From NCBI GenBank assembly GCA_001029755.1, contig CP011214.1, positions 273,564 to 337,563 on the forward strand: a stretch of 64,000 bases of DNA. The letters run 5' to 3'. The translations under genes were made by a program, and so were the position numbers. Positions 1,084-60,749 of this stretch are shown here, one piece after another. Position 1 is the stretch's first letter. Each line of letters starts with the position of its first letter. The notes below the pieces were generated by a model. It was not told where the DNA came from. It made no database searches and saw only the letters and a program-made list of their open reading frames with translations. The DNA comes from Candidatus Woesebacteria bacterium GW2011_GWF1_31_35. Its GTDB lineage: Bacteria; Patescibacteriota; Microgenomatia; UBA8517.

Positions 1084-1439
1084 ATTACGGGTGGAAGTAA
1101 ATCAACACCATTTTGTGTTCCAAACATTTGATTAAATATATCAATACCGAAAAATGTTCCAATAATTCTAATTATCCAAAAAGATACAAATAAAATTAAT
1201 ATTCCTATTATGGAACTTGTAATTTTTGATTGGGCTGCTTGCATTACCTTAGGTTCTCCAGCAGATGTCATCATTTGATATCCTGAAACAATAATATTTA
1301 AAAGTAAAATTATACCTGCAATTCCATAAACATAAGGAAGAATTTCAATAATTATGTCTGCTGGTTTATTAAAAACTGAACTTACAGATATTCCAGCTTT
1401 ATCCTCAATGTCATCTAGTCCTGGTGATAATGAAAGCAT
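1080..1439 (-). CDS. T4SS-pilin-like two-TM protein, paralog 1
   Basis: 119 aa. TM1, loop MTSAGEPKVMQAAQSKITSSIIG, TM2. First of four translationally coupled paralogs downstream of the Cys-rich fusion gene. Confidence 0.5.
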   Translation of the reverse strand: MLSLSPGLDDIEDKAGISVSSVFNKPADIIIEILPYVYGIAGIILLLNIIVSGYQMMTSAGEPKVMQAAQSKITSSIIGILILFVSFWIIRIIGTFFGIDIFNQMFGTQNGVDLLPPVI

Positions 1440-3997: not shown

Positions 3998-4732
3998 ATG
4001 CCAGACATTTTTATTTCAAGTAAGAATAACAAAAAAGAAGATATTAAAGATAATAAAGAATCCGGTTCTTTCGTTGAAGAAAAAAAAATAAAAACTGATA
4101 GAGGTTTTAACAAACCTCCTGTTGAGGAAATTCTCAAAAGAGAAGCTTATAGAGGACTTCATCCTATGCAGGGAAAAAAACCTCTTTCATCATTCCTTTT
4201 TAGTCCTGATGGAATTAATTTTGAGACCATGGAAGCGGAAGAAAAAGTAGTTCTCTTTTTAAGAAAACATTTAATTACAAATATTCCTTGGATTTTTGTG
4301 GGTCTACTTATGATTTTAGTCCCAACAGTAGTTTCAGCTCTTTCTATTTTTGACTCAGTTCCTGCTAATTTTAAATTTATCTTTGTTCTTATTTGGTATT
4401 TAATTACAATGGCCTACATTTTAGAAAGTTTTTTGACTTGGTTTTTCAATGTTTACATAGTAACCGATGAAAGAATAATTGATATTGATTTTTATAATTT
4501 AATTTATAAAGAAGTAAGTGACGCCAACATTGATAAAATTCAAGATGTCACTTATAAAATGGGAGGAGTTATTAGAACTCTATTTAATTATGGGGATGTA
4601 TTAATCCAAACTGCTTCAGAAGTTCCCAATTTTGATTTTTTAGCAGTTCCAAAGCCTGATATGATAGCCAGGGTTTTGCAAGACTTACGCATGGAAGAAC
4701 AACAAGAATTAGTAGAAGGGAGAATAAGATGA
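3998..4732 (+). CDS. Membrane protein with bacterial PH-like (bPH_2/YdbT-like) domain
   Basis: 244 aa. Two TM helices followed by a YIVTDERIIDID...GDVLIQTAS segment typical of bPH_2 domains. Confidence 0.4.
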   Translation: MPDIFISSKNNKKEDIKDNKESGSFVEEKKIKTDRGFNKPPVEEILKREAYRGLHPMQGKKPLSSFLFSPDGINFETMEAEEKVVLFLRKHLITNIPWIFVGLLMILVPTVVSALSIFDSVPANFKFIFVLIWYLITMAYILESFLTWFFNVYIVTDERIIDIDFYNLIYKEVSDANIDKIQDVTYKMGGVIRTLFNYGDVLIQTASEVPNFDFLAVPKPDMIARVLQDLRMEEQQELVEGRIR

Positions 4733-4947
4733 TACCAATAATTGGAATATCTGTTTGGGGAATATTAAAAATTGGTATTTTAATTTTACTAGCTCTTTAT
4801 ATAGTTTTTGCTTTTGTTATAGTCAGGCAAGTTCAATTGATGACAGCAACATTAGAAGTAGGTTTCGAATCTCAACTTAAATTTTTATCTTTCATGCACT
4901 TTCTTTTTGCTATAGCAGTTTTAATATTTTCATTTTTAATTTTGTGA
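4729..4947 (+). CDS. Small two-TM membrane protein
   Basis: 72 aa, hydrophobic, start overlaps the upstream stop by 4 nt. Confidence 0.3.
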   Translation: MIPIIGISVWGILKIGILILLALYIVFAFVIVRQVQLMTATLEVGFESQLKFLSFMHFLFAIAVLIFSFLIL

Positions 4948-4950
4948 GAA

Positions 4951-6384
4951 ATGCCCTTAAAACTAATATCAAACAAAGGTAAACTTTCTTCCCTTGGTGT
5001 TGGATCAATCTCCTACCATTTGGGAAAAATTCATATAAATTTAGAAAACTATTGTCAAGCCATTCTATTAAGAGATGGAAACAATATTAAACTTTTAGAA
5101 ACTAATTCTATAGGTTCTTCAATTACTGGAATACCTAAAGAAGGCGACGTTTATACATTGGGATCAATTGAAAATTTTAAGAATAATGAAAGTCTTGAAA
5201 TTTTAACTGTAAAAGTTGAAAAACAAAATTTCTCAATTCCTCTTCCTAAATTTCCTAGACAAAACTTCTTTGTTAATAATAATAACTCAAACAATGAAGC
5301 AACCCCACAAGCGAGAAAAACAACATTAACAGTTGGAGTGGTTTTATTGATTTTACTTTTAGTAAGTGTATTTTTTGGAGTAAGACAAAAAAGATTAAAT
5401 GAATTCCAAGAAAAATCCAAAGTTTTACTTACACAGGCATTATCAGATTATGAAAATTCAATTAATTCAATTTCAATTGATAAAGACAAATCTAGGGAAC
5501 TTTTTATTTCTTCAAAAGAAATTGCATTTAAATTAGAAAAAGATGGATTTAAAAGTGATGATCTAAAAAAATTAATAGAAAAAATAACTTCTCAAGAAGG
5601 AGAGATCTTGGGGGAAATAAAAGCAACAGTAAATGAATTTTTAGATTTAACTCTTCAGACGAGTGGTTTTAATGGCGATGAAATTGCATCCTCTGGTGAA
5701 GAAGTTTTTGTAATTGATAAGAAGAACAAAAATATAATTCAGATTGGAATTAAGACTAAAAATGCAACGATTGTAGCAGGATCAGGAGAAGTTGGAGAAA
5801 CAACCCAAATTGGAGCATATGAAGAAAGACTTTTCCTTCTTAAAAATGACGGAATTTATGAAGTTAATAATACAAGTAAAAAAGTATTAGAAAAAGACTG
5901 GAGTGATGTGTTGTTTTATTTATACGCTGGAAATATTTATTTAATTGATAAAACAAATAATACAATTTTAAGATATGCAGGAAGCTTAAATAGTTTTTCA
6001 GCAAAATCAGACTGGCTAGCTCCAGGAATTGAAGCTGATTTTTCAAAAGTTAAAGATATATCAATTGACGGAGCAATCTGGCTTCTTTCAAGTTCTGGAA
6101 AAGTAGCCAAATTTATACTAGGAAGTCCACAAGCTATATCCTTAAAAGGACTAATAGGTCAACTTGATAATCCAACTGCAATTTATACAAATGAAAATTT
6201 AAAAATGGTCTATATTTTAGAAAAGGACAAAGGAAGAATTGTTGTTATTGAAAAAAAAGGAGACTTTAAAATCCAATACACATCGGATGATATTAAAAAT
6301 GCAAAGGATTTAGTTGTTTCTGAAACTGAAGGCAAAATAATTCTTCTAACAGGACCAAAACTTATGTTTATAGAACTAAAATAA
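4951..6384 (+). CDS. Hypothetical single-TM protein
   Basis: 477 aa with a TM helix near residue 125-145; no motif I recognise. Confidence 0.3.
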   Translation: MPLKLISNKGKLSSLGVGSISYHLGKIHINLENYCQAILLRDGNNIKLLETNSIGSSITGIPKEGDVYTLGSIENFKNNESLEILTVKVEKQNFSIPLPKFPRQNFFVNNNNSNNEATPQARKTTLTVGVVLLILLLVSVFFGVRQKRLNEFQEKSKVLLTQALSDYENSINSISIDKDKSRELFISSKEIAFKLEKDGFKSDDLKKLIEKITSQEGEILGEIKATVNEFLDLTLQTSGFNGDEIASSGEEVFVIDKKNKNIIQIGIKTKNATIVAGSGEVGETTQIGAYEERLFLLKNDGIYEVNNTSKKVLEKDWSDVLFYLYAGNIYLIDKTNNTILRYAGSLNSFSAKSDWLAPGIEADFSKVKDISIDGAIWLLSSSGKVAKFILGSPQAISLKGLIGQLDNPTAIYTNENLKMVYILEKDKGRIVVIEKKGDFKIQYTSDDIKNAKDLVVSETEGKIILLTGPKLMFIELK

Positions 6385-6390
6385 TTAATT

Positions 6391-6760
6391 TGGTGGAGAT
6401 GGAGGGAATCGAACCCTCATCCGAAAAACTTAAAAACAAAACTTCTACAAGCTTATTTAGTTAATAATTTTTCCTTTAAATTTATCCAACTAACAGGAAT
6501 CTAAAGTAAGATTTAATTATCTTTTAAAAAATTTCTCTAAATCAAAAGAAATTAGTTAGCATCTCGAATTGGTTTACACCCAGTCAGTTCAGTCGAGAAC
6601 CAAACGTCAGGACGCTAATTAAGAATATGCCAAAGCATATTGGAAATTAGAAGCATAACTGTTAGGTTTTGCTTTTATTTTTTGATATCTTTTTACAAGT
6701 GTTTATCAAACTTGGCTTGCTGTTTTGTTAAAGAGCTTCCCGTCGAAACCGGTCATCCCC
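6391..6760 (-). ncRNA. ssrA: tmRNA (ssrA)
   Basis: Minus-strand 5' end GGGGATGACCGGTTTCGACGGG (canonical tmRNA start) at 6741-6760, and 3' tRNA-like end GGTTCGATTCCCTCCATCTCCACCA at 6391-6415. Lies directly downstream of smpB. Confidence 0.8.
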
Positions 6761-19398: not shown

Positions 19399-19983
19399 AT
19401 GTTTTTATTAAAGAAAAATTATTGGGAAATATTAAAAACAAAAGAAAAAGGTTATGGTGTTTTTCTTAAGAAAAAGATTACAAAAGGAACAATTATTGGT
19501 GATTATATTGGAAAGGTAATCGAAACTTCCAAATATAACTTGAAAAATGATAAAAATGGACTTTATTTAATGTACTATACAGACAAAGCAGCAATTTATC
19601 CAAATCTTAAAAAACCTGGAATTCATCTTCTAAATCATTCTTGTAAACCAAACTGTTGGATTTATACATATTGTGGCCATACTTTATTTTTTGCAATTAG
19701 AAATATTAAAGCAGGGGAGGAACTTACTATTTCATATTTACTTCCCCCAAAAGATGCGACTTGTAATCCTTGTACCCACAATTGTAGATGTGGAAGTAAA
19801 ACTTGCACGGGTACAATGCATTTAACTAAAGAAAAATTTAAAAAATGGCAAAAATTTCAAGACAAAGAGAAGAAAAAGACCAAAATAGCTAAGTTTGTAT
19901 TTGGAAAAAATCTTCTAAAACTTAAACTATATCCAAAAATAATTCCCAATAACTCAATTTATAAGGTAATTACTTACCTTTGA
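19399..19983 (+). CDS. SET-domain protein (putative lysine methyltransferase)
   Basis: 194 aa. NHSCKPNC, ELTISY and a Cys-rich post-SET region (CNPCTHNCRCGSKTC). Confidence 0.65.
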   Translation: MFLLKKNYWEILKTKEKGYGVFLKKKITKGTIIGDYIGKVIETSKYNLKNDKNGLYLMYYTDKAAIYPNLKKPGIHLLNHSCKPNCWIYTYCGHTLFFAIRNIKAGEELTISYLLPPKDATCNPCTHNCRCGSKTCTGTMHLTKEKFKKWQKFQDKEKKKTKIAKFVFGKNLLKLKLYPKIIPNNSIYKVITYL

Positions 19984-27248: not shown

Positions 27249-28412
27249 ATGTGGCTAACAGAAGAATTAAATAATCTAAAAAAATCAGGACTTTATAATA
27301 ATATTTTAACCATAGAAAGTCCTATTGGGGGAGAGATAATAATTGAAGGAAGGAAACTACTTAATTTTTGTTCTAATAACTATTTAGGTCTTGCAAATAA
27401 TCCTCGTCTTAAAAAAGCAGCAATCGCTGCAATTAATAAGTTTGGTGTTGGTCCTGCTGCAGTTAGAACAATTGCAGGAACTACTACTTTACATAAAAAA
27501 CTTGAAAAAGACTTGGCAAAGTTTAAAAAGTGTGAAGCTGTTCTTACCTTTCAAAGTGGTTTCATGGCAAATTTAGCTACAATTCCTGCTTTAGTTGGTG
27601 AAGGAGACTTGATTTTTTCGGATGAACTTAATCATGCCAGTATTATTGATGGTTGTAGAATCTCAAAAGCTACAGTTATTCGTTTTAAACACGCAGATAC
27701 TGTTGATTTAGAATCTTTACTTAAAAAAGCTTCTAAAAAAGTTAAGAAACTAGTAATTACTGATGGAGTATTTTCAATGGATGGAGATATTGCACCCTTA
27801 GATAAAATTTATAAAGTAACTTCAAAATATGGAGCACTTTTAATGGTTGATGATGCACATGGTGAGGGAGTATTAGGTAGAAATGGTAGAGGAATTGTTG
27901 ATCATTTTAATCTTCATGGAAAAGTTGATATTGAAGTTGGAACAATGAGTAAAGCCCTTGGAGTTGTTGGAGGTTTAGTTGCTGGTAAAGGTGAAATTAT
28001 AGAATGGTTAACCCAGCGCGCTAGACCATTTCTTTTTTCTTCAGCTATGACAATTCCTGATGTCGGAGCCTGTATTGAAGCTGTAAAAATTTTAGGAAGC
28101 TCCGGCGTCTTAGTTAAAAAACTTTGGAGTAATGCGGATTATTTAAGTAAAGGTTTAAGTAGATTTGGGTTTGATACAGGTAAAAGTCAAACTCCCATAA
28201 TTCCTTTAATGTTGGGGGAAGTTACTTTGGCAAAAGAATTTAGTAATTTACTTTTTGAAAACGGAGTATTTGCAAAAGCAATTGGCTATCCGACAGTTCC
28301 AGAAGGGAAAGCAAGAATTAGAATAATGAATACTGCGGTTCACACCAAAAAAGACCTTGATAAAGCTCTTTTGGTTTTTGAAAAAGTAGGTAAAACTTTA
28401 AAAGTAATTTAA
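27249..28412 (+). CDS. Pyridoxal-phosphate-dependent glycine C-acetyltransferase / 8-amino-7-oxononanoate synthase family enzyme (Kbl/BioF-like)
   Basis: 387 aa. [21 protein letters not shown]...[15 protein letters not shown] and the PLP-lysine region GTMSKALG. Confidence 0.7.
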
Positions 28413-29365
28413 CATCTTACATTAGCTCCACAATTCTGACAATTAGATATTAGTTGTCCAGATGGTCTTCTGTTAGTTGCACCACAACTTGGACAGGGAA
28501 ATTCTAAGGATCCATATTCATCTGAATATCCAAATGCAAGTGTTTGTGTTTCAGTATTTAGGCCATTTGTATTTAAAAGAGTGATATTTGATTTTCCACA
28601 TCCTGATTTTTCAAGATTCATTCCAAATCCTGCTTTTTCCATTTCTGTCTCAATATAGGCTCCATATTCAAATGGATTACTATAAATTACTGATAGGTTT
28701 TTCATAATTGGTTTATTTACAATAGTAGCTTTTTTTAAAGCTTTGGCTTTATTTTTGACAGCTGTTCCATCTAAAATACTTTGAAAAATTTCTTTTTCTG
28801 GTAATTTGATTATTTCAGACAGATAACTAAAAGGATCTTTCTCTGGTGGTATTTCTAATTTAATTACAATTGATTTTAAATCATCTAAATTTTGTGGAAA
28901 TAGATAATTATTTGAAGAAACAGATACAAGCAGTTGACCAAGTTTTAAACAATCATCTTTTGACAAAGTTGTACTTATTCCATAAGATTCAAAATATTCA
29001 AATTTTTTGCTTTTAGTAATTCTTTTTGCACCTATGTCAATTCTTGTTTCAGGCCAAGGATTTGGTGGACTAATCCAAACATAAGCAAAATTTTCGGTAT
29101 CTTCAAGAAGGAGTTTTCTTATTTCTTCACCAGCAGGAGTTAGAGGATCGTTTCTTACAAACATTTCTGAAACATCTCTTCTATCTATTCCTGGAGCAAT
29201 AACTTTATTTCTCTCTCTTTTTATATAATGATGTGGATTCACTCGTGGATTTCCAGTGTTTGAAGCTTCAATAACAAGAGAAGCTGTGTCATTATTTAAG
29301 GAAGCCAATTTCTGGGGAGTATCGTATCTTCTTAGATCTAGTGCAATAAATTGTTCTTTTGACAT
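28409..29365 (-). CDS. Hypothetical soluble protein with C-terminal double-CxxC zinc ribbon, preceded by a cobalamin-riboswitch-like leader
   Basis: 318 aa. C-terminus [28 protein letters not shown]. No other motif I recognise. Confidence 0.35.
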
Positions 29366-29445
29366 ATTTTCCTGCTCGGGTTTTAGTGGGTTCTGGGTTT
29401 ACAGTAGCGGCACTCCCACGGAATTTCACCGTGATTCACCAAATT
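29366..29445 (-). ncRNA. Candidate cobalamin (B12) riboswitch in the 5' leader of the 28409..29365 gene
   Basis: The minus-strand RNA reads GGUGAAAUUCCGUGGGAGUGCCGCUACUGUAAACCCAG...GAGCAGGAAAAUAUG. This matches the cobalamin-riboswitch core GGUGnAAnUCC...CCGCCACUGUAA (B12 box, one mismatch) and the 3' GCCAGGA-like element adjacent to the start codon. The segment is locally GC-rich. Confidence 0.45.
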
Positions 29446-29507
29446 TATTAACACATTACAGTTTATGTTACACTTTTTGTAAAGGGGTAATTTGAAATAA
29501 AAGGGGG

Positions 29508-29693
29508 GTGAATAAAGATATGAAGAAAAAAGATTCAGCTAAACTTTCAAAATTTTTAATGATAGGTGCTTTATTAGGGGTAATGTTTTCCTTTATAGGC
29601 TATTTTGGATTAGATATTTGGCTTGCATCAACTCAGTGGTTATTAGTTTCTGCGGTAATGGCTCTTTTTGGAGTTTATTTGAAGCTGACTTGA
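29508..29693 (+). CDS. Small two-TM membrane protein
   Basis: 61 aa, hydrophobic; weak call. Confidence 0.2.
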   Translation: MNKDMKKKDSAKLSKFLMIGALLGVMFSFIGYFGLDIWLASTQWLLVSAVMALFGVYLKLT

Positions 29694-29777
29694 GGCTAGC
29701 GGTAATCATGCGGAGAATATACGGTAATTACTCTTAAACTTGACATCTATTAGTGGTTAGGAGTATTTTTAGAGCAC

Positions 29778-30263
29778 ATGAAATCTAGCAGGAAAGACAT
29801 TGTTATTGGTTTTATATTAATTATTGCTTTAGTTGGTGGAATTTTCTTTTACAAAAATTTAAAAACTCCAAAAGTACTTCCAACTTCCACTCCATTAACA
29901 ATTAAATCAAAGATTGAAGGACTATTTAATTATGTTATCCCTGATGATTTGGATTCAATAGAACTTAAAGATGTTACTGGGGGAATATATAGAGGAATTG
30001 CTGCAAGAAAATTTGAAAAAAGAATCTTTACAATTACAGTATTAGCTGATCTACCAGATTTATCTTCAAATGAATTTTATGAAGGATGGGTATTTTCAGG
30101 TGATAAGTTTATTTCAATTGGAAAATTAAGAATTGCTAAGGGTGGATTTTTAGTTGATTTTACTTCAAATACTGATTATTCTTCTTACAATAAAGTTACT
30201 GTTACTAAAGAAAAGGTTAATGATAATAAACCTGAGAGCCTAATTCTTGAAGGATCTTTTTAA
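29778..30263 (+). CDS. Hypothetical N-terminally membrane-anchored protein
   Basis: 161 aa, one TM; no motif I recognise. Confidence 0.3.
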   Translation: MKSSRKDIVIGFILIIALVGGIFFYKNLKTPKVLPTSTPLTIKSKIEGLFNYVIPDDLDSIELKDVTGGIYRGIAARKFEKRIFTITVLADLPDLSSNEFYEGWVFSGDKFISIGKLRIAKGGFLVDFTSNTDYSSYNKVTVTKEKVNDNKPESLILEGSF

Positions 30264-47724: not shown

Positions 47725-48252
47725 ATGAAGTATAATAAAAGTATGGACTTAAAGCTAGAAAAAAGAATTTGGTGGAATTATATAGAAGAGGATTTACAGG
47801 AACTATTGGTTCTTTCTGAGTTTCTATCAAACGTAGTTAAAAGCTGGGGAGGGAATTTGCCTGCTGGAAGTAAGGTCTTTCATGATTATTCATTTGTTGT
47901 TTTTCCATCAGCTAAAGCATATGAAGGTTTTTTAAAAAAAGTATTTTTAGATATGGGATTTATTACAAATGAAGATTATCTTGGGAAACATTTTAGAATA
48001 GGAAAATCTCTAAATCCATATCTAGAAGAAAGATTTAGAAATGGTGAAAGTGTTTATGATAGATTGGTTAAATTTTGTGGAGGCAAAGAATTAGCCGATA
48101 CTTTGTGGAATGCGTGGACTACAAGTCGAAACCTTGTGTTTCATTGGTTTCCAAACGAGAAGAAAGCAATTTCTTTTGAGGAAGCTGAAGTGAGAATAAA
48201 ACTTATCATCGACGCTATGGATATGGCATTTAAAGGGTGTAAACTTAAGTAA
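47725..48252 (+). CDS. Hypothetical soluble protein
   Basis: 175 aa; no motif I recognise. Start may be the downstream Met (MDLKLEK). Confidence 0.25.
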   Translation: MKYNKSMDLKLEKRIWWNYIEEDLQELLVLSEFLSNVVKSWGGNLPAGSKVFHDYSFVVFPSAKAYEGFLKKVFLDMGFITNEDYLGKHFRIGKSLNPYLEERFRNGESVYDRLVKFCGGKELADTLWNAWTTSRNLVFHWFPNEKKAISFEEAEVRIKLIIDAMDMAFKGCKLK

Positions 48253-50223: not shown

Positions 50224-53200
50224 ATGGTAAGACTTAAAAATAAAAAAATTAAAAAACAAATAAGTTTTGAAAGTTTTAAAGCTCCAACATACGAAAAGAT
50301 TAAAACTCTAATTAATAAAAAGATTGGTGCAAGACCTAGTATTCCTGATGATTTAGCAAAAGGGGATTGGACTGAACAAGCATTAAAAGTTTTAGAGGAA
50401 AGATATTTAATTAAAGATAACGATTTAAAACCAATAGAAACTCCTGAAGACATGCTTTGGAGAGTCTCTTGGGAAATTGCATCTTCAGAAGCAAGATGGG
50501 GAACTACTAAAAAAGATGTAGAAAAGATAGCACGAGATTTTTATGGTCTCATGGTTTCAAGAAAATTTTTACCAAATTCTCCAACCTTAATGAATGCTGG
50601 AACAAATAATGGTTTACAGTATTCTGCTTGTTTTGTTCTTCCAATAGAAGATTCAATGGAAGGAATTTTTGATGCTTTAAAATATCAAGCAATTATTCAT
50701 AAAACTGGAGGAGGAACAGGATTTGCATTTAGTCGATTAAGACAAAATGGATCGGTTGTTAAAACTTCAAGCGGTACTGCTTCAGGACCAATTTCTTTTA
50801 TGAGGATTTTTGATGCTGCAACAAATGAAGTTAAACAAGGGGGAAAAAGAAGAGGGGCTAATATGGGAATTTTGCGAGTTGATCATCCTGATGTATTGGA
50901 ATTTATTCATTGTAAAGAAGAGGGAGGTATTACTAATTTTAATATTTCGATTGCCTTAACTGATGCCTTTATGAAGGCTTATCAAAATGGAGAAAATTAT
51001 GACTTGATAAGTCCTAAAAACAAAGAAGTTGTTGGAAGCCTTTCTGCAAAGTTGGTTTTTGATGAGATTGCAGATGGAGCTTGGAGAACTGGAGATCCTG
51101 GTTTAATTTTTATTGATAAAATTAATAGTAGTACTGCTAATCCTGTACCATCAATTGGTGCAATTGAAGCTACTAATCCATGTGTAACAGGAAACACTTT
51201 GGTGTCTACAAACAGAGGATTAGTAAAAATTGAAAATCTTTACTTAGATAAAAGAAATACAAAAATTTTAACAGATAGTAGACTTTCAGATATTAAGTTT
51301 CAGATTCCTTCTAGGATTTTGCAGACAGGTAAAAAACAGGTTTACAAATTAACAACATTTGAGGGGTATGAATTAAGCCTTACAGGGAATCATAAAGTTT
51401 TAACTGAAAGAGGTTGGGTTGAAGCTTTAAAGTTGAGAGAAAATGACAAAATATTTATTTCTAATAGGAAGGGTAGTTTTGGTGTTGAAGGATCTCTGGA
51501 TGAAGGACAAATTATTGGATGGTTGGTTGGTGACGGAACAATGAAAAGGACTCAAGCGATTCTATCCTTTTTTGGTTACGAAAAACAGGAATTGGCACCA
51601 AAGTTTGCTCAAATGGTGGAACATTTAGTTGATGGAAAACAAATGTTAGCTAGGAATTATTCTGTTTCAGTAATTAATATTAATGACAGGGATGAAGCAA
51701 GAGTTCAATCTACAAGGTTAGCTAGATATATGAATGAAATTGGTATAGATAAAGATTCAAAATTAAAAGTTCCAGAAACAGTTTTGTTAGGAAACGAGGA
51801 GATGCAAAAAGGATTTTTGCAAGCATTATTTACCGCAGATGGTCATGTTGGTGGGAATGCAGAAAAAAGTGTCAGTGTGAGATTAACATCTATTTCAGAT
51901 TCATTATTAAAAGATGTACAGAGAATCCTTCTAAATTTTGGGATTGTAAGTAAAATTTACACAGAAAGAAGAAAAGAACAAAAAAGATTTTTACCAAATG
52001 GTCGTGGGGGATCTAAGGAATATTTGTGTAAATCATATAGTGACTTAGTAATTTCAAAATCATCTTTAAAAGTTTTTAAAGATAATATTGGTTTCTTGTC
52101 TGAATGTAAAAATATAAAACTTGTTACATTGTTAAATGAATACAAAGAAGGGCCTTATAAAGAAAATTTTATTGCTAGATTTAAAAAATTAATAAAAGAA
52201 GGCGTTGAAATGGTCTATGATTTAACTGAGCCATCTACGTCATCCTTTATAGCTAATGGTTTAGTTGTTCATAATTGTGGAGAACAGCCGTTATATCCAT
52301 TTGATGCCTGTAATTTAGGGAGCATATTTCTAACATATTTTATTAAAGATGGAGAAATTGATTGGGATGAACTAAAAAAAGTTACTAGAACCTCAGTTAG
52401 ATTTTTGGATAATGTAATTGAAGTTAATCCATATCCATTAGAGCAGATTAGAAAAACAGTCTTTGCAATAAGAAGAATTGGTTTAGGTATTGGAGGTTGG
52501 GCTGATATGCTTTTGGAACTTGGGATTCCATATGATTCAGAAGAAGCAATAACCCTAGCTGAAAAAATAATGAAGACTATTCAAGACGAAGCAGTTGAAG
52601 AAAATGAAAAATTAGCCAAAATTAGAGGAGCATTCCCACTTTTTAAGAGTTCAATCTATAAAAATGGAAAACCTAGAAGAAACTCAACCGTTACAACCAT
52701 TGCCCCAACTGGAACAATATCGATAATTGCAGGAGCATCATCAGGAATTGAACCACTTTTTGCAATTGCTTATCAACATATTGTTAAAGATAAACATTTA
52801 GATAGAAAGATGACATTTGTAAATCCTAAATTTGAAGAAGTTTCACGAAAAGAAGGTTTTTGGAGTAAAGAACTAATGGACAAAGTGGGAGAATTAGGAG
52901 TTATTCGTGGTATTAATGAAGTACCTCAAAAGATAAAAGATATTTTTGGTACAGCTCATGAGATTAATCCTGAATGGCATATAAAAACACAAGCAATTTT
53001 CCAAAAATATACAGAAAATGCTGTTAGTAAGACAATTAATTTAAAAAGTGATGCAACTGTTGATGATGTTAAAAAAGTATATCTTGACGCATGGAATGCA
53101 GAATGTAAGGGAATAACAGTTTTTAGAGATGGATGTAAAGATACTCAAGTTTTAAACCTTGGTATCAATAGTCAAAAGAAAGAAATTGAAAAAGAAGAAG

Positions 53201-53799
53201 AAAAATCTGAAGAGCCTTTAAGACATAGGCCATATGTTGTTAGAGGTTCAACATATAGGTTGTCAACTCCTGTTGGTACTGCTTTTATAACCATAAATGA
53301 AGATGAAGAAGGTCAACCCTTAGAAGTATTTATTAATGTAGGAAAAGCTGGTTCAGATGTTGCAGCAATGGCAGAAGCCTTGGGTAGAACAATTTCAACA
53401 ACCTTAAAATTTAGAGGAAATATATCAGCTAAAGAAAAGGCAAGAGAAATTGCAGAACAGTTAGCGGGGATTGGCGGGAGAAGATCAATCGGTTTTGGAC
53501 CTACTAAAATAAGGTCTCTTCCCGATGCTATAGCAGGAGCAATTTCAGTTCATTATAACTTTGGTATTAATGGATATCATAATAGTCCAAATATTTTTGG
53601 AGGAAATCAATCAAATGGAAATATTGTAAGTGAAGTAATTGCATCAGCACCACATGTTGAAGAAAAACAACAAGAGAGCCTCTTTTTGCAAGCATCTAAA
53701 GAAAAAGTGGGAGATATATGTCCATCTTGTGGAGCTTCTGCCTTAGTATTTGAAGAAGGTTGTAGTAAGTGTCATGCGTGTGGTCATTCTGAATGTTAA
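50224..53799 (+). CDS. nrdJ: Adenosylcobalamin-dependent ribonucleotide reductase (class II, NrdJ) interrupted by an intein
   Basis: 1191 aa. The extein active-site motif ATNPC|GEQPL is split by a 365-aa insertion. B12-dependent RNR features are present, including the C-terminal CPSCG...CSKCHACGHSEC. Confidence 0.85.
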   Translation: MVRLKNKKIKKQISFESFKAPTYEKIKTLINKKIGARPSIPDDLAKGDWTEQALKVLEERYLIKDNDLKPIETPEDMLWRVSWEIASSEARWGTTKKDVEKIARDFYGLMVSRKFLPNSPTLMNAGTNNGLQYSACFVLPIEDSMEGIFDALKYQAIIHKTGGGTGFAFSRLRQNGSVVKTSSGTASGPISFMRIFDAATNEVKQGGKRRGANMGILRVDHPDVLEFIHCKEEGGITNFNISIALTDAFMKAYQNGENYDLISPKNKEVVGSLSAKLVFDEIADGAWRTGDPGLIFIDKINSSTANPVPSIGAIEATNPCVTGNTLVSTNRGLVKIENLYLDKRNTKILTDSRLSDIKFQIPSRILQTGKKQVYKLTTFEGYELSLTGNHKVLTERGWVEALKLRENDKIFISNRKGSFGVEGSLDEGQIIGWLVGDGTMKRTQAILSFFGYEKQELAPKFAQMVEHLVDGKQMLARNYSVSVININDRDEARVQSTRLARYMNEIGIDKDSKLKVPETVLLGNEEMQKGFLQALFTADGHVGGNAEKSVSVRLTSISDSLLKDVQRILLNFGIVSKIYTERRKEQKRFLPNGRGGSKEYLCKSYSDLVISKSSLKVFKDNIGFLSECKNIKLVTLLNEYKEGPYKENFIARFKKLIKEGVEMVYDLTEPSTSSFIANGLVVHNCGEQPLYPFDACNLGSIFLTYFIKDGEIDWDELKKVTRTSVRFLDNVIEVNPYPLEQIRKTVFAIRRIGLGIGGWADMLLELGIPYDSEEAITLAEKIMKTIQDEAVEENEKLAKIRGAFPLFKSSIYKNGKPRRNSTVTTIAPTGTISIIAGASSGIEPLFAIAYQHIVKDKHLDRKMTFVNPKFEEVSRKEGFWSKELMDKVGELGVIRGINEVPQKIKDIFGTAHEINPEWHIKTQAIFQKYTENAVSKTINLKSDATVDDVKKVYLDAWNAECKGITVFRDGCKDTQVLNLGINSQKKEIEKEEEKSEEPLRHRPYVVRGSTYRLSTPVGTAFITINEDEEGQPLEVFINVGKAGSDVAAMAEALGRTISTTLKFRGNISAKEKAREIAEQLAGIGGRRSIGFGPTKIRSLPDAIAGAISVHYNFGINGYHNSPNIFGGNQSNGNIVSEVIASAPHVEEKQQESLFLQASKEKVGDICPSCGASALVFEEGCSKCHACGHSEC
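51181..52275 (+). mobile_element. Intein (365 aa) with LAGLIDADG homing-endonuclease domain inside NrdJ
   Basis: Starts with Cys (CVTGNTLVST), ends with VVHN followed by extein Cys (CGEQPL). Two LAGLIDADG motifs: IIGWLVGDGTM and FLQALFTADGHV. Inserted within the conserved NPC|GEQ catalytic motif of the RNR. Confidence 0.85.
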
Positions 53800-53812: not shown

Positions 53813-54307
53813 TTGATATTCATGTCAGTTTATACACGAACAGGGGATAAAGGGAAAACAGGAACTTTTAATGGAAAAAGAATTTCCAAATCTTCAACAT
53901 TGATTAATACAATTGGTAGTTTAGATGAATTAAATTCATATTTAGGCATTATTGGGGGATTAACCGAAATTCAAAAAAATATATTTACAATAAATTCAAT
54001 TTTATCAGGAGCAAAACTTACTTTTCCAAAAACTGAAACTTTAAAGTTAGAAGAAGAAATTGATGCTATGGAGAAAAAACTTCCAGTTTTAGCTAGTTTT
54101 ATAATCTATGGAGGAACTTCAAAAGCATCCCAAATTTATTTTGCAAGAAGCCTTTGCCGTCGTGCAGAAAGATCATTGGTTAAGTTAGAAATTATGGACC
54201 AAAAATTAATAGTATTAGCTTATATAAATAGACTCTCAGATTATTTATTTACTTTAGCTCGTTTTACTAATTTTAGGAAAAAAGTTAAGGAAGGTACTTG
54301 GAAATAA
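53813..54307 (+). CDS. ATP:cob(I)alamin adenosyltransferase, PduO-type
   Basis: 164 aa. VYTRTGDKGKTGTFNGKRISKSSTLINTIGSLDELNSYLG matches the PduO-type N-terminus. Confidence 0.75.
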   Translation: MIFMSVYTRTGDKGKTGTFNGKRISKSSTLINTIGSLDELNSYLGIIGGLTEIQKNIFTINSILSGAKLTFPKTETLKLEEEIDAMEKKLPVLASFIIYGGTSKASQIYFARSLCRRAERSLVKLEIMDQKLIVLAYINRLSDYLFTLARFTNFRKKVKEGTWK

Positions 54308-54323
54308 TGCTACAATTAAAAGC

Positions 54324-54650
54324 ATGGGACTACTGCCTGAAAGAGAACCAATTAAAAAAAGTTATGAGAATCCTGACGAGGCTTCTCCTTTAAATATTGA
54401 AAGAAAAGAAGTTGTTTCTCCAGTTCTGACTCATTTTAAAGCTCAAGTTAAAAATGATAAAGGACAAAACTTGATCGAGACTCCTGAAGGAAGAAAGATG
54501 GAAATAAAGATTCCTGAAGATAGTAAAGAATCTTTGGAAGGAAAAATTAAAGGATCAAAAGATGAATCTTCAGCTTGGTCAGCCGGATATTGGTTAAGAA
54601 TAATAAAAAAAGCTATATACTTTGGATGGAAGGTGGTGTTTGATAAATGA
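54324..54650 (+). CDS. Hypothetical protein, start-stop coupled to the downstream ATPase
   Basis: 108 aa, acidic, with an amphipathic C-terminus. Confidence 0.2.
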   Translation: MGLLPEREPIKKSYENPDEASPLNIERKEVVSPVLTHFKAQVKNDKGQNLIETPEGRKMEIKIPEDSKESLEGKIKGSKDESSAWSAGYWLRIIKKAIYFGWKVVFDK

Positions 54651-60432: not shown

Positions 60433-60692
60433 TTGCGGAGCTGGGAGTTGAACCCAGCCTGCGAGATTATGCTGTTCTGTAATCTCCAATTACTTGGAGT
60501 GCCGGACTATATCTTCATCCTATTTTTAGGAGCTCGGCGTGTAGTCTCTAGGGGGTCATTTTTAGACTTCCCTCGGGATTGACCTTTTAAAAAAAAGGCG
60601 TTCCCCGATATAGCCAAGTTTCACTTTTAACATTACTATTAAAGTGGCCCAATTTTAGTTAAGCCTCGCGTGCAGCCGTACACTACCCCGCA
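60433..60692 (-). tRNA. tRNA (anticodon CAT; Met or Ile2 type) interrupted by a group I intron in the anticodon loop
   Basis: Minus-strand 5' exon TGCGGGGTAGTGTACGGCTGCACGCGAGGCT (60662-60692) and 3' exon CATAATCTCGCAGGCTGGGTTCAACTCCCAGCTCCGCAA (60433-60471). These reconstitute acceptor TGCGGGG/CTCCGCA, anticodon stem CGAGG/TCTCG, loop CT|CATAA and T arm CTGGG-TTCAACT-CCCAG. The exact splice junctions are inferred. Confidence 0.55.
60472..60661 (-). mobile_element. Group I intron (about 190 nt) within the tRNA(CAU) gene
   Basis: The minus-strand sequence carries group I core elements: an R-like AGAGACTACA, an exact S element AAGATATAGTCC (GACTA/TAGTC form P7), a P-like AAATTGGGCC, a Q-like AATCCCGAGG, and a terminal G. 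It is locally GC-rich. No ORF inside. Confidence 0.6.
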
Positions 60693-60749
60693 TATAAAAA
60701 CGTTGTTATTATAACATATGAGTTAATAATTTGGTAAAATACCAAGTAC

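Follow-up and report, generated by a model that had tools for sequence, protein, structure and literature searches.

What might a bacterium that cannot make vitamin B12 place under the control of that vitamin, when the controlled gene resembles nothing annotated? The question arises in a 64-kb stretch of a Candidatus Woesebacteria genome, referred to here as the window. Bacteria of the CPR such as Woesebacteria lack B12 synthesis, and this genome depends for its DNA precursors on NrdJ, which requires adenosylcobalamin (AdoCbl). The intein-containing class II ribonucleotide reductase NrdJ (50224..53799, plus strand; NF006417, 1005 bits, cut-off 961; TIGR02504, 666 bits) is followed after 13 nt by a PduO-type cob(I)alamin adenosyltransferase (53813..54307, plus strand; TIGR00636, 137.6 bits, cut-off 108), so that both B12-related genes named in the original prediction are present. 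Elsewhere in the window, on the minus strand, the predicted 318-aa ORF at 28409..29365 is likewise real; we call it gene X (public record: hypothetical protein A2422_03785).

A cmscan of the whole window (64 kb, both strands, 4227 families) placed a class-II cobalamin riboswitch aptamer, RF01689 (AdoCbl-II), at 29380..29454 on the minus strand, with a score of 38.8 bits (gathering score 36.5; E 1.1e-5). Its 3' end lies 15 nt upstream of the ATG of gene X, and it is the sole cobalamin riboswitch in the 64 kb. A cobalamin riboswitch had been predicted here and the significant Rfam match bears this out, but the family proposed, RF00174, was dropped as the best model because RF01689 (class-II or 'AdoCbl-variant') scores higher; the upper coordinate given for the leader had also stopped 9 nt short of the aptamer end. 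The strings on which the prediction was built occur on the minus strand as quoted, with GGUGAAAUUCC at 29430..29420, GUGCCGCUACUGUAA at 29413..29399 and GAGCAGGAAAAUAUG ending at the ATG (29365..29363).

The RF01689 alignment assigns, all on the minus strand, P3 (29441..29439 pairing with 29389..29387), P5 (29414..29406) and P6 (29404..29393), with P4 at 29433..29417 enclosing the L4 T-loop UGAAAUU. The conserved L4 T-loop (GUGAAAUUC) and the B12 box are found in the window leader within GGUGAAAUUCC and GUGCCGCUACUGUAA. P6 consists of 3 bp and a 6-nt loop and has no extension, a mark of class II as opposed to class I; class I (RF00174) has the clan CL00101, the B12 box and L4 in common with the window aptamer, and differs in its P6 extension and in the best-fitting model. 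The P1 drawn by Rfam, GUGUUA/UAAAAC with one mismatch, is weak. The minimum free energy of the leader was no better than that of shuffled sequences (z +0.73), and thermodynamic folding is therefore uninformative as evidence.

Inspection of the upstream DNA pointed to a putative promoter on the minus strand, with a -35 element TTTACA (29478..29483) and a -10 element TGTAAT (29455..29460; TAAATT or GATAAT in orthologues). In all orthologous leaders, TTGACx or TTTACA, N17 and a -10 hexamer stand at a constant distance from the aptamer. The promoter is not listed by the scan because the -10 hexamer has a G at position 2. These elements would imply a transcription start ~6-8 nt downstream of the putative -10, at a point within or beyond the 5' strand of the Rfam-drawn P1. 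Since this strand abuts or overlaps the predicted -10, P1 is possibly untranscribed in the window's leader type. J1/3 is missing from some class II members (PMC6158498).

The co-occurrence of homologues of X with B12 elements, a check set beforehand, held at 15 of 16 distinct loci, where a cobalamin-clan match of 27-54 bits immediately precedes the homologue or a pduO-X pair; at the 16th locus the same core is broken up by insertions. Pattern-search scans gave 2 loci in genomes and 4 in metagenomes. The loci span 20-100% protein identity, and the B12 box and the platform are invariant. Orthologous leaders score 27-44 bits with RF01689. The leaders of L016 (24% identity, with an insertion in P6) and L018 (20% identity) match RF00174 instead, at 32 and 54 bits, owing to the presence of a P6 extension or peripheral helices. 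When 13 leaders were aligned with MAFFT, pairing held in 91.8% of cells, compared with 22-50% in slid controls, and 7 pairs had changes in both partners, 6 of these within P4-P6. P4, P5 and P6 were 95-100% paired and covarying; the figure for P3 was only 67%, as the alignment puts two leader subtypes out of register. L4 is off consensus in L004 (UUGAUUU), L011 (UUAAAUU) and L016 (UUAGAUU). The B12 box is even translated in 16 over-extended public gene calls of the family (as CAATVxAGKL, ECRYC and CRNR), including those of members at just ~20% identity. On this comparative sequence evidence, we regard the cobalamin riboswitch before gene X, which would sense vitamin B12, as confirmed and not a chance match.

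The aptamer is followed by the expression platform CCCGAGCAGGAAAAUAUG (29363..29380, minus strand), an L13-like motif with the Shine-Dalgarno sequence AGGA at 29373..29370. What had been taken for a 'GCCAGGA' box at the start codon is in fact this L13-like CGAGCAGGA motif, which would combine a kissing-loop partner with the Shine-Dalgarno sequence. The form C[CU]CGAG[CU]AGGA-N(1-5)-AUG closes every stand-alone leader, with one copy split by an insertion. The proposed partner on the receptor side is the L5 loop UGCCG (29408..29412, minus strand), homologous to L5 of env8HyCbl (PMC5028336). The complementarity between L5 and the platform allows two registers and comes with few variant sequences: the first pairs U51-A90, G52-C89 and C53-G88, with one double substitution in L015, and the second, env8-like, pairs C53-G92, C54-G91 and G55-C89 around a bulged A90. 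The paired change in L015 (L5 G to A, platform C to U) is the sole kissing-loop covariation and amounts to one sequence.

We rejected two other modes of switching. Transcription termination was set aside because 28300..29800 contains no terminator-like site and the stretch between aptamer and ATG is only ~15 nt long. An anti-aptamer arrangement, in which the conserved CCCGAG would pair with G-runs of the aptamer, was considered on inspection of the leaders and discarded because the G-runs are not kept across loci. By analogy, we consider repression of translation most likely, through an L5-L13-type kissing loop covering the ribosome-binding site, as demonstrated for env8HyCbl, itself an RF01689 member (PMC5028336). 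A sigma-70-type promoter would drive a short leader carrying the class-II cobalamin aptamer (P3-P6 four-way junction, L4 T-loop and B12 box). When cobalamin is bound, L5 would dock onto the conserved CGAGCAGGA motif, whose Shine-Dalgarno sequence stands 5-8 nt ahead of the start codon, and would thereby block translation of gene X. As docking would block translation, we propose that X is produced only when intracellular B12 is scarce. We infer both this OFF polarity and the kissing-loop register.

The env8HyCbl/Cbl-IIa riboswitch reportedly goes back to work by Johnson et al. in 2012. Like this RNA (RF01689 'AdoCbl-variant', PDB 4FRG/4FRN; Polaski et al. 2016, PMC5028336), the window element has a P3-P6 four-way junction, the L4 T-loop GUGAAAUUC and a B12 box. 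In both, P6 is not extended and a short linker leads to an L13-like CGAGCA(A)GGA containing the ribosome-binding site, and we liken the window element to env8HyCbl in design, which is that of a translational OFF switch. The two differ in L5, which is UGCCG in the window and UACUUG in env8HyCbl; the window loop is one nucleotide shorter, which makes the register uncertain. Unlike env8HyCbl, the window leader has no clear 3' strand of a P13 stem, and leaders of its type have a P1 and a J1/3 that are weak or may not be transcribed. The hosts also differ, a CPR bacterium and a marine proteobacterium. Ligand preference in class II ranges from MeCbl/HOCbl-selective to AdoCbl-selective (PMC6158498). 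As a compact class-II variant, possibly without P1, that tolerates hairpin insertions, the window RNA could serve work on riboswitch structure and function.

Gene X is the founding member of a family, counting 642 representatives, without annotation, Pfam model, structural relative or other known relatives. We searched X and 118 divergent relatives against Pfam, NCBIfam, PHROGs, PADLOC and the PDB (phmmer/hmmsearch); Pfam, NCBIfam, PHROG and PDB returned nothing beyond sub-threshold zinc-ribbon matches, in keeping with the original prediction of no recognisable domain other than the ribbon. The C-terminal 4-Cys ribbon (CPSCG...CQNCG..VRC, residues 291-318; 28412..28495, minus strand) is the most conserved part of the family. 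Its knuckles, CPSCG-x14-CQNCG, have all four Cys at least 90% conserved and show the two CxxC(G) motifs ~15 residues apart that define rubredoxin/zinc-ribbon folds, with a weak resemblance to eL43-type ribbons (E 0.08). A further residue, Cys256 in the motif GCG.SN (28598..28600, minus strand), lies just before a disordered linker and is invariant in alignment A1 and at least 90% conserved in alignment A4. The AF2 model of X has a pLDDT of 86.6, falling to 36 over residues 268-279.

Two independent high-confidence models show a PAS-like, putatively ligand-binding domain, an N-terminal alpha/beta domain at about residues 17-135 (28961..29317, minus strand) with the family signature VWISPP..WPE.R. 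The likeness to PAS, LOV and Cache domains would be one of fold only, at 2-13% identity and with no LOV flavin-binding motif, and no PAS, Cache or GAF profile of Pfam or NCBIfam matched X or the 118 divergent members. X showed no sequence or structural similarity to known B12-binding, B12-reducing or B12-trafficking proteins, among which we sought PduS, CobA/EutT/PduO, CblC/CblD, BtuF/BtuM/CbrT and PF02310. A role in uptake, which had also been suggested, is unlikely because X has no signal peptide or membrane segment. Literature searches yielded nothing on the X family, nor anything on Microgenomates B12 riboswitches.

Evolution of the family is very rapid, with a mean column identity of 17%, which is unusual in a housekeeping salvage enzyme. 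Between two strains whose flanks are 92-94% identical, the gene body has been swapped for a 28%-identical homologue; nucleotide identity to strain L004 is restored from 28523 onward. The window holds no second copy of X. Viral origin was rejected, as viral contigs in IMG/VR contain no relatives of X.

An independent indication of function comes from the locus L017, where the gene order is nrdR-DUF6941-nrdJ-[RF01689, 44.4 bits]-pduO-X, syntenic with the nrdR-nrdJ-pduO-VirD4 region of the window. In L017, pduO and X overlap by ATGA, an arrangement that couples their translation, and hhalign places the X homologue firmly within the family (probability 97.2%, E 3.7e-11). The pduO-X operon was found at this one locus, and no PduO-X fusion proteins occurred among relatives of P0189. 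A cobalamin-salvage accessory was among the roles first suggested for X, and this distant member, coupled to pduO behind a cobalamin riboswitch and next to nrdJ, supports it.

We know of only poorly defined partners for PduO-type enzymes outside microcompartment systems. Taken on sequence and gene context, X is probably a cobalamin-salvage accessory that works with PduO under B12-riboswitch repression of translation, a reading we hold with moderate confidence. X would be a cytoplasmic protein made up of a small-molecule-binding domain of PAS-like fold, a helical domain, a flexible linker bearing an invariant Cys and a 4-Cys knuckle of the rubredoxin/zinc-ribbon type. It may capture scavenged corrinoid, process it (by reduction or removal of the upper ligand), or both, and pass it to PduO, which would convert it to AdoCbl for NrdJ. 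We infer every biochemical detail of X, including any binding of cobalamin, flavin or iron.

A more specific version, which we think possible but doubtful, makes X a previously unrecognised corrinoid handler of the cytoplasm. The tetrapyrrole-like macrocycle would sit in the PAS-like pocket, cobalt would be ligated or dealkylated by the invariant Cys, and electrons would pass through the 4-Cys knuckle as a rubredoxin-like site. X would then supply PduO, in CPR bacteria with their minimal genomes, as the cob(II)alamin reductase or escort that is missing there, and the body of the protein, exchanged between nearly identical strains, would adapt it to different cobamides of the environment. Likeness to PduO accessory proteins, namely the cobalamin reductase PduS and the trafficking proteins CblC/MMACHC and CblD/MMADHC, lies in the proposed role only, that of a cytoplasmic partner preparing or delivering cobalamin for the adenosyltransferase that X adjoins in the L017 operon. 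MMADHC uses a Cys for Co-S ligation; X also has a conserved Cys. The architecture of X (PAS-like domain, helical domain, 4-Cys ribbon) differs from that of all of these proteins, to which it has no sequence or fold similarity.

X could alternatively be a sensor or regulator of B12 starvation, with the PAS-like domain sensing a metabolite and the ribbon and helical domain binding a nucleic acid or protein partner. Such a protein might adjust replication or dNTP metabolism when NrdJ fails, in loose analogy to NrdR with its Zn ribbon and ATP cone. We consider this unlikely: X lacks output domains (kinase, GGDEF or others) as well as DNA-binding ones such as HTH, its invariant residues (Cys, Trp, Ser and Pro) are more suggestive of a binding or active site, and translational coupling with pduO suggests a common pathway and not regulation.

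The original prediction had also offered a B12-sparing function, now weaker than the salvage role. X would stand in, without B12, for a B12-dependent step when the vitamin is lacking, as metE or nrdAB/nrdDG do elsewhere. B12-independent isozymes are the classic targets of OFF-type B12 riboswitches, and the genome relies on AdoCbl for NrdJ. However, X cannot be a ribonucleotide reductase, since it has 318 aa and no catalytic-domain match; in L017 it has its riboswitch in common with a translationally coupled gene of B12 utilisation; and its extreme divergence and in-situ cassette replacement are unlike those of core metabolic isozymes. We therefore judge a sparing role improbable.

The same cassette replacement, together with MazE/PIN and HEPN genes near X in some loci, might suggest a gene involved in conflict, as an immunity or defence factor or as the target of one, with B12 control incidental. 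This is very improbable, as PADLOC gave no match except one weak CARF match (E 0.008) in one member, no relatives occur in viral contigs, and the conserved riboswitch and pduO coupling would be left unexplained. Finally, the leader might resemble a riboswitch by chance or through decay, with the ORF expressed constitutively. This view could draw on a score just 2.3 bits over the gathering threshold, the weak P1, the unremarkable leader folding and the altered L4 and/or insertions in L004 and L011, but is effectively refuted by the comparative sequence data, in which 15 of 16 loci carry the element in place, substitutions compensate one another, and neither the B12 box nor the platform varies.

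Tracking riboswitches to the genes they control has repeatedly revealed novel vitamin transporters and salvage enzymes. With its riboswitch and its link to a B12-activating enzyme, the X family, as a probable salvage accessory of PduO, is a good candidate for a missing component of B12 salvage in the ultra-small bacteria of the CPR. Should X prove to reduce, escort or process cobalamin, a gap in what is known of B12 trafficking in bacteria would be closed and a new corrinoid-binding fold added.

All of the sequence strings quoted in the original prediction of a B12 riboswitch upstream of gene X (28409..29365 (-), encoding a 318-aa protein) were found on the minus strand. Ten matches came back from a whole-window cmscan at gathering thresholds. 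The one at 29380..29454 (-) is to RF01689 (AdoCbl-II, the class-II or 'AdoCbl-variant' family of cobalamin riboswitches) and scores 38.8 bits, above the gathering score of 36.5 (E 1.1e-5). The aligned region has the L4 T-loop (GUGAAAUUC) and the B12 box, and its P6 is short, lacking the class-I extension. Together, the strings, the score and the aligned elements confirm a cobalamin riboswitch, the family being RF01689 and not the class-I RF00174 of the same Rfam clan, as had been proposed. It adds another member to a known class and has some unusual traits: P1 may be missing, L5 is shortened and insertions are tolerated.

The expected co-occurrence of X homologues with B12 riboswitches was borne out. 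A cobalamin-clan match lay directly upstream, on the coding strand, in 15 of 16 distinct loci encoding X homologues (window, 38.8 bits; L001, 38.3; L002, 33.7; L003, 38.8; L004, 27.6; L005, 34.7; L006, 39.8; L009, 27.1, clipped by the contig end; L012, 28.2; L013, 33.3; L014, 28.6; L015, 43.7; L016, 32.2, to RF00174; L017, 44.4; L018, 54.2, to RF00174). The sixteenth, L011, had the same core broken by hairpins (insertions 1115..1160 and 1216..1245): P4 holds two of them in its 5' strand, and one separates CGAGC from AGGA in the platform. Hairpin insertions were also seen between aptamer and platform at L012:2935..2987 and L009:60..122; those of all three leaders were G+C-rich, and that of L009 held a GUCCCGAG unit three times over.

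In a MAFFT alignment of 13 leaders, helices P3–P6 and the candidate kissing loop were 91.8% paired, against 22–50% with the 3' partners slid, and seven pairs had changed on both sides. P4 covaried as CACGG/CCGUG, UGCAG/CUGCA, UACGG/CCGUA and CCCUG/CAGGG, the outer pair of P5 was A-U or U-A, and the middle pair of P6 was U-A or C-G. Protein databases gave independent evidence: 16 public gene calls of the family with over-extended N-termini (P0014, P0015, P0017, P0021, P0030, P0040, P0066, P0124, P0129, P0132, P0138, P0148, P0156, P0158, P0173 and P0181) started with translations of the B12 box (CAATVxAGKL, ECRYC, CRNR), several in members only about 20% identical to the window protein. N-termini of this kind (for example, CAATVKAGKL or ECRYC) are an annotation error that recurs, and at the protein level they also mark a B12 box upstream. 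These comparisons indicate that the cobalamin RNA upstream of X is real.

Directly before every leader lay a conserved putative promoter, TTGACx-N17-TAAATT/GATAAT (TTTACA at 29483..29478 and TGTAAT at 29460..29455 (-) in the window). Because the 5' strand of P1 as drawn by Rfam abuts or overlaps the predicted -10 element in the window leader type (the two together at 29449..29460 (-) in the window), P1 and J1/3 may be absent from it, an absence reported in certain class II members (PMC6158498). In orthologues with only 7–9 nt from the -10 element to UGG, the P1 5' strand cannot be transcribed. This subtype may be a P1-less class-II aptamer closed solely by a 3–4 bp UUGG/CCAA helix.

All stand-alone leaders terminated in C[CU]CGAG[CU]AGGA-N(1-5)-AUG; the window platform is CCCGAGCAGGAAAAUAUG at 29380..29363 (-), with the Shine–Dalgarno (SD) AGGA at 29373..29370. 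In the structurally and genetically characterized RF01689 member env8HyCbl, a cobalamin-dependent L5–L13 kissing loop occludes the ribosome-binding site (RBS) (PMC5028336). With no terminator-like hairpin found near the window leader, only 15 nt between aptamer end and ATG, and a platform motif closely like L13 of env8HyCbl, we infer by analogy a translational OFF switch. The RBS would be covered by a kissing loop between L5 and the platform, in one of two candidate registers. The first would pair U51-A90, G52-C89 and C53-G88, displayed on a C84/C85-G92/G91 mini-stem; it would account for the invariant CC, and L015, in which GUGCC has become GUACC and GAGCAGG has become GAGUAGG, backs it with a double substitution. 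The second, env8-like, would pair C53-G92, C54-G91 and G55-C89 with A90 bulged, and fits both the L011 hairpin, inserted exactly at A90, and the L017 platform.

The product of X has the same sequence as 'hypothetical protein A2422_03785' from Candidatus Woesebacteria bacterium RIFOXYC1_FULL_31_51 (CPR/Microgenomates). Neither it nor 118 divergent relatives matched Pfam, NCBIfam, PHROG, PADLOC or PDB sequences beyond sub-threshold ribbon matches. Among 1.84 billion cluster representatives, a profile search recovered 642 family members, 343 at E ≤1e-10, all of 250–420 aa; those sampled, none with a functional name, came from metagenomes or from MAGs of Microgenomates (Woesebacteria, Levybacteria). 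By these searches, the family is new to databases. E33, W97, S99, P100, Arg/Lys at 164, C256 and four ribbon cysteines were near-invariant. The window protein (pLDDT 86.6, pTM 0.76) and a 28%-identical homologue (pLDDT 88.5, pTM 0.79) gave concordant AlphaFold models. In both, an N-terminal alpha/beta domain and a helical domain are joined to a C-terminal ribbon by a disordered linker, rich in Ser/Thr, that begins directly after the conserved Cys. The predicted fold is PAS-like at best.

Gene X is monocistronic. Genes for a small membrane protein and an RskA_C-like protein and a glutaredoxin-TIM-RpiB-PGK-GAPDH cluster are divergent from it, and a Kbl/BioF-like gene runs toward it. This arrangement is kept in many orthologous loci and carries no B12 information. 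Elsewhere the window holds a SET-domain protein (19399..19983 (+)), an ORF with a HEPN/RNase LS-like toxin domain (47725..48252 (+)) and a tmRNA gene (6391..6760 (-), 149.5 bits). A group I intron (RF00028, 89 bits, 60483..60671) splits an apparent tRNA-Leu(UAA) at about 60445..60700 (-) in the anticodon loop (exon halves GCGGGGUAGUGUACGGCUGCACGCGAGGCUUAA and ...CUCGCAGGCUGGGUUCAACUCCCAGCUCCGCA); ARAGORN made no call there.

In the L004 strain, whose flanks are 92–94% nucleotide-identical to the window, similarity ends exactly at the G of ATG (29363) and restarts at 28523, the last 38 codons, which encode the ribbon. Since the intervening body (28524..29362 (-); L004:4004..4704) is swapped for a homologue only about 28% identical, the conserved leader and ribbon flank an exchangeable cassette. 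The L004 leader has a changed L4 (UUGAUUU), its score down to 27.6 bits. Either diversifying selection (toward different cobamides, for example) or a role in conflict could explain the exchange.

The predicted B12 genes of the window stood: NrdJ (50224..53799 (+)) scored above NCBIfam equivalog cut-offs, and PduO (53813..54307 (+)) starts 13 nt after it. This NrdJ contains an intein (Intein_splicing about residues 334–684) with a LAGLIDADG homing-endonuclease domain (527–623); the 792-aa homologue at L017 has none. L017 reads DUF5667-nrdR-DUF6941-nrdJ-[RF01689]-pduO-X-151 aa-VirD4-like (RF01689, 4322..4391, 44.4 bits; pduO, 4447..5004; X, 5001..6008), syntenic with DUF5667-nrdR-nrdJ-pduO-108 aa-VirD4-like in the window (VirD4 62.5% identical, NrdR 51%). 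Its distant X homologue, P0189, aligned with the family profile over the PAS-like core (hhalign probability 97.2%, E 3.7e-11) and carries the characteristic ribbon. Small, unrelated low-complexity ORFs (window 54324..54650 (+), 108 aa; L017:6056..6511, 151 aa) separate pduO or pduO-X, respectively, from the conserved VirD4/TrwB-like ATPase, a homologue of type IV coupling proteins.

Because the pduO stop overlaps the X start (ATGA) in this gene order, the riboswitch in the L017 lineage appears to govern both pduO and X, coupled in translation. The window lineage has pduO joined to nrdJ, and X retains the riboswitch at a separate site ~21 kb away. In the L017 platform (4385..4446), two UUCUCGAGA copies can pair together, over 10 bp in the minimum free energy fold. 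An alternative hairpin there, AACUUCUCG-AGAA-CGAGGAGUU, hides the SD GAGGAG and has U6 after it. This platform differs from the window's and resembles a switch between a terminator or sequestrator and an antiterminator.

Of the roles originally proposed for X, a B12-independent bypass looks unlikely, and B12 salvage is supported by the family-wide riboswitch and the pduO links. The pduO-X coupling and this riboswitch linkage place X, on genomic context, in the cobalamin-adenosylation branch of salvage. Given a fold typical of small-molecule or tetrapyrrole binding, together with an invariant cysteine and a knuckle of the rubredoxin type, the most economical hypothesis is that X would serve PduO as an escort that binds or reduces cobalamin. 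Two independent genomic links of this novel family, riboswitch and pduO, both point toward B12 salvage.
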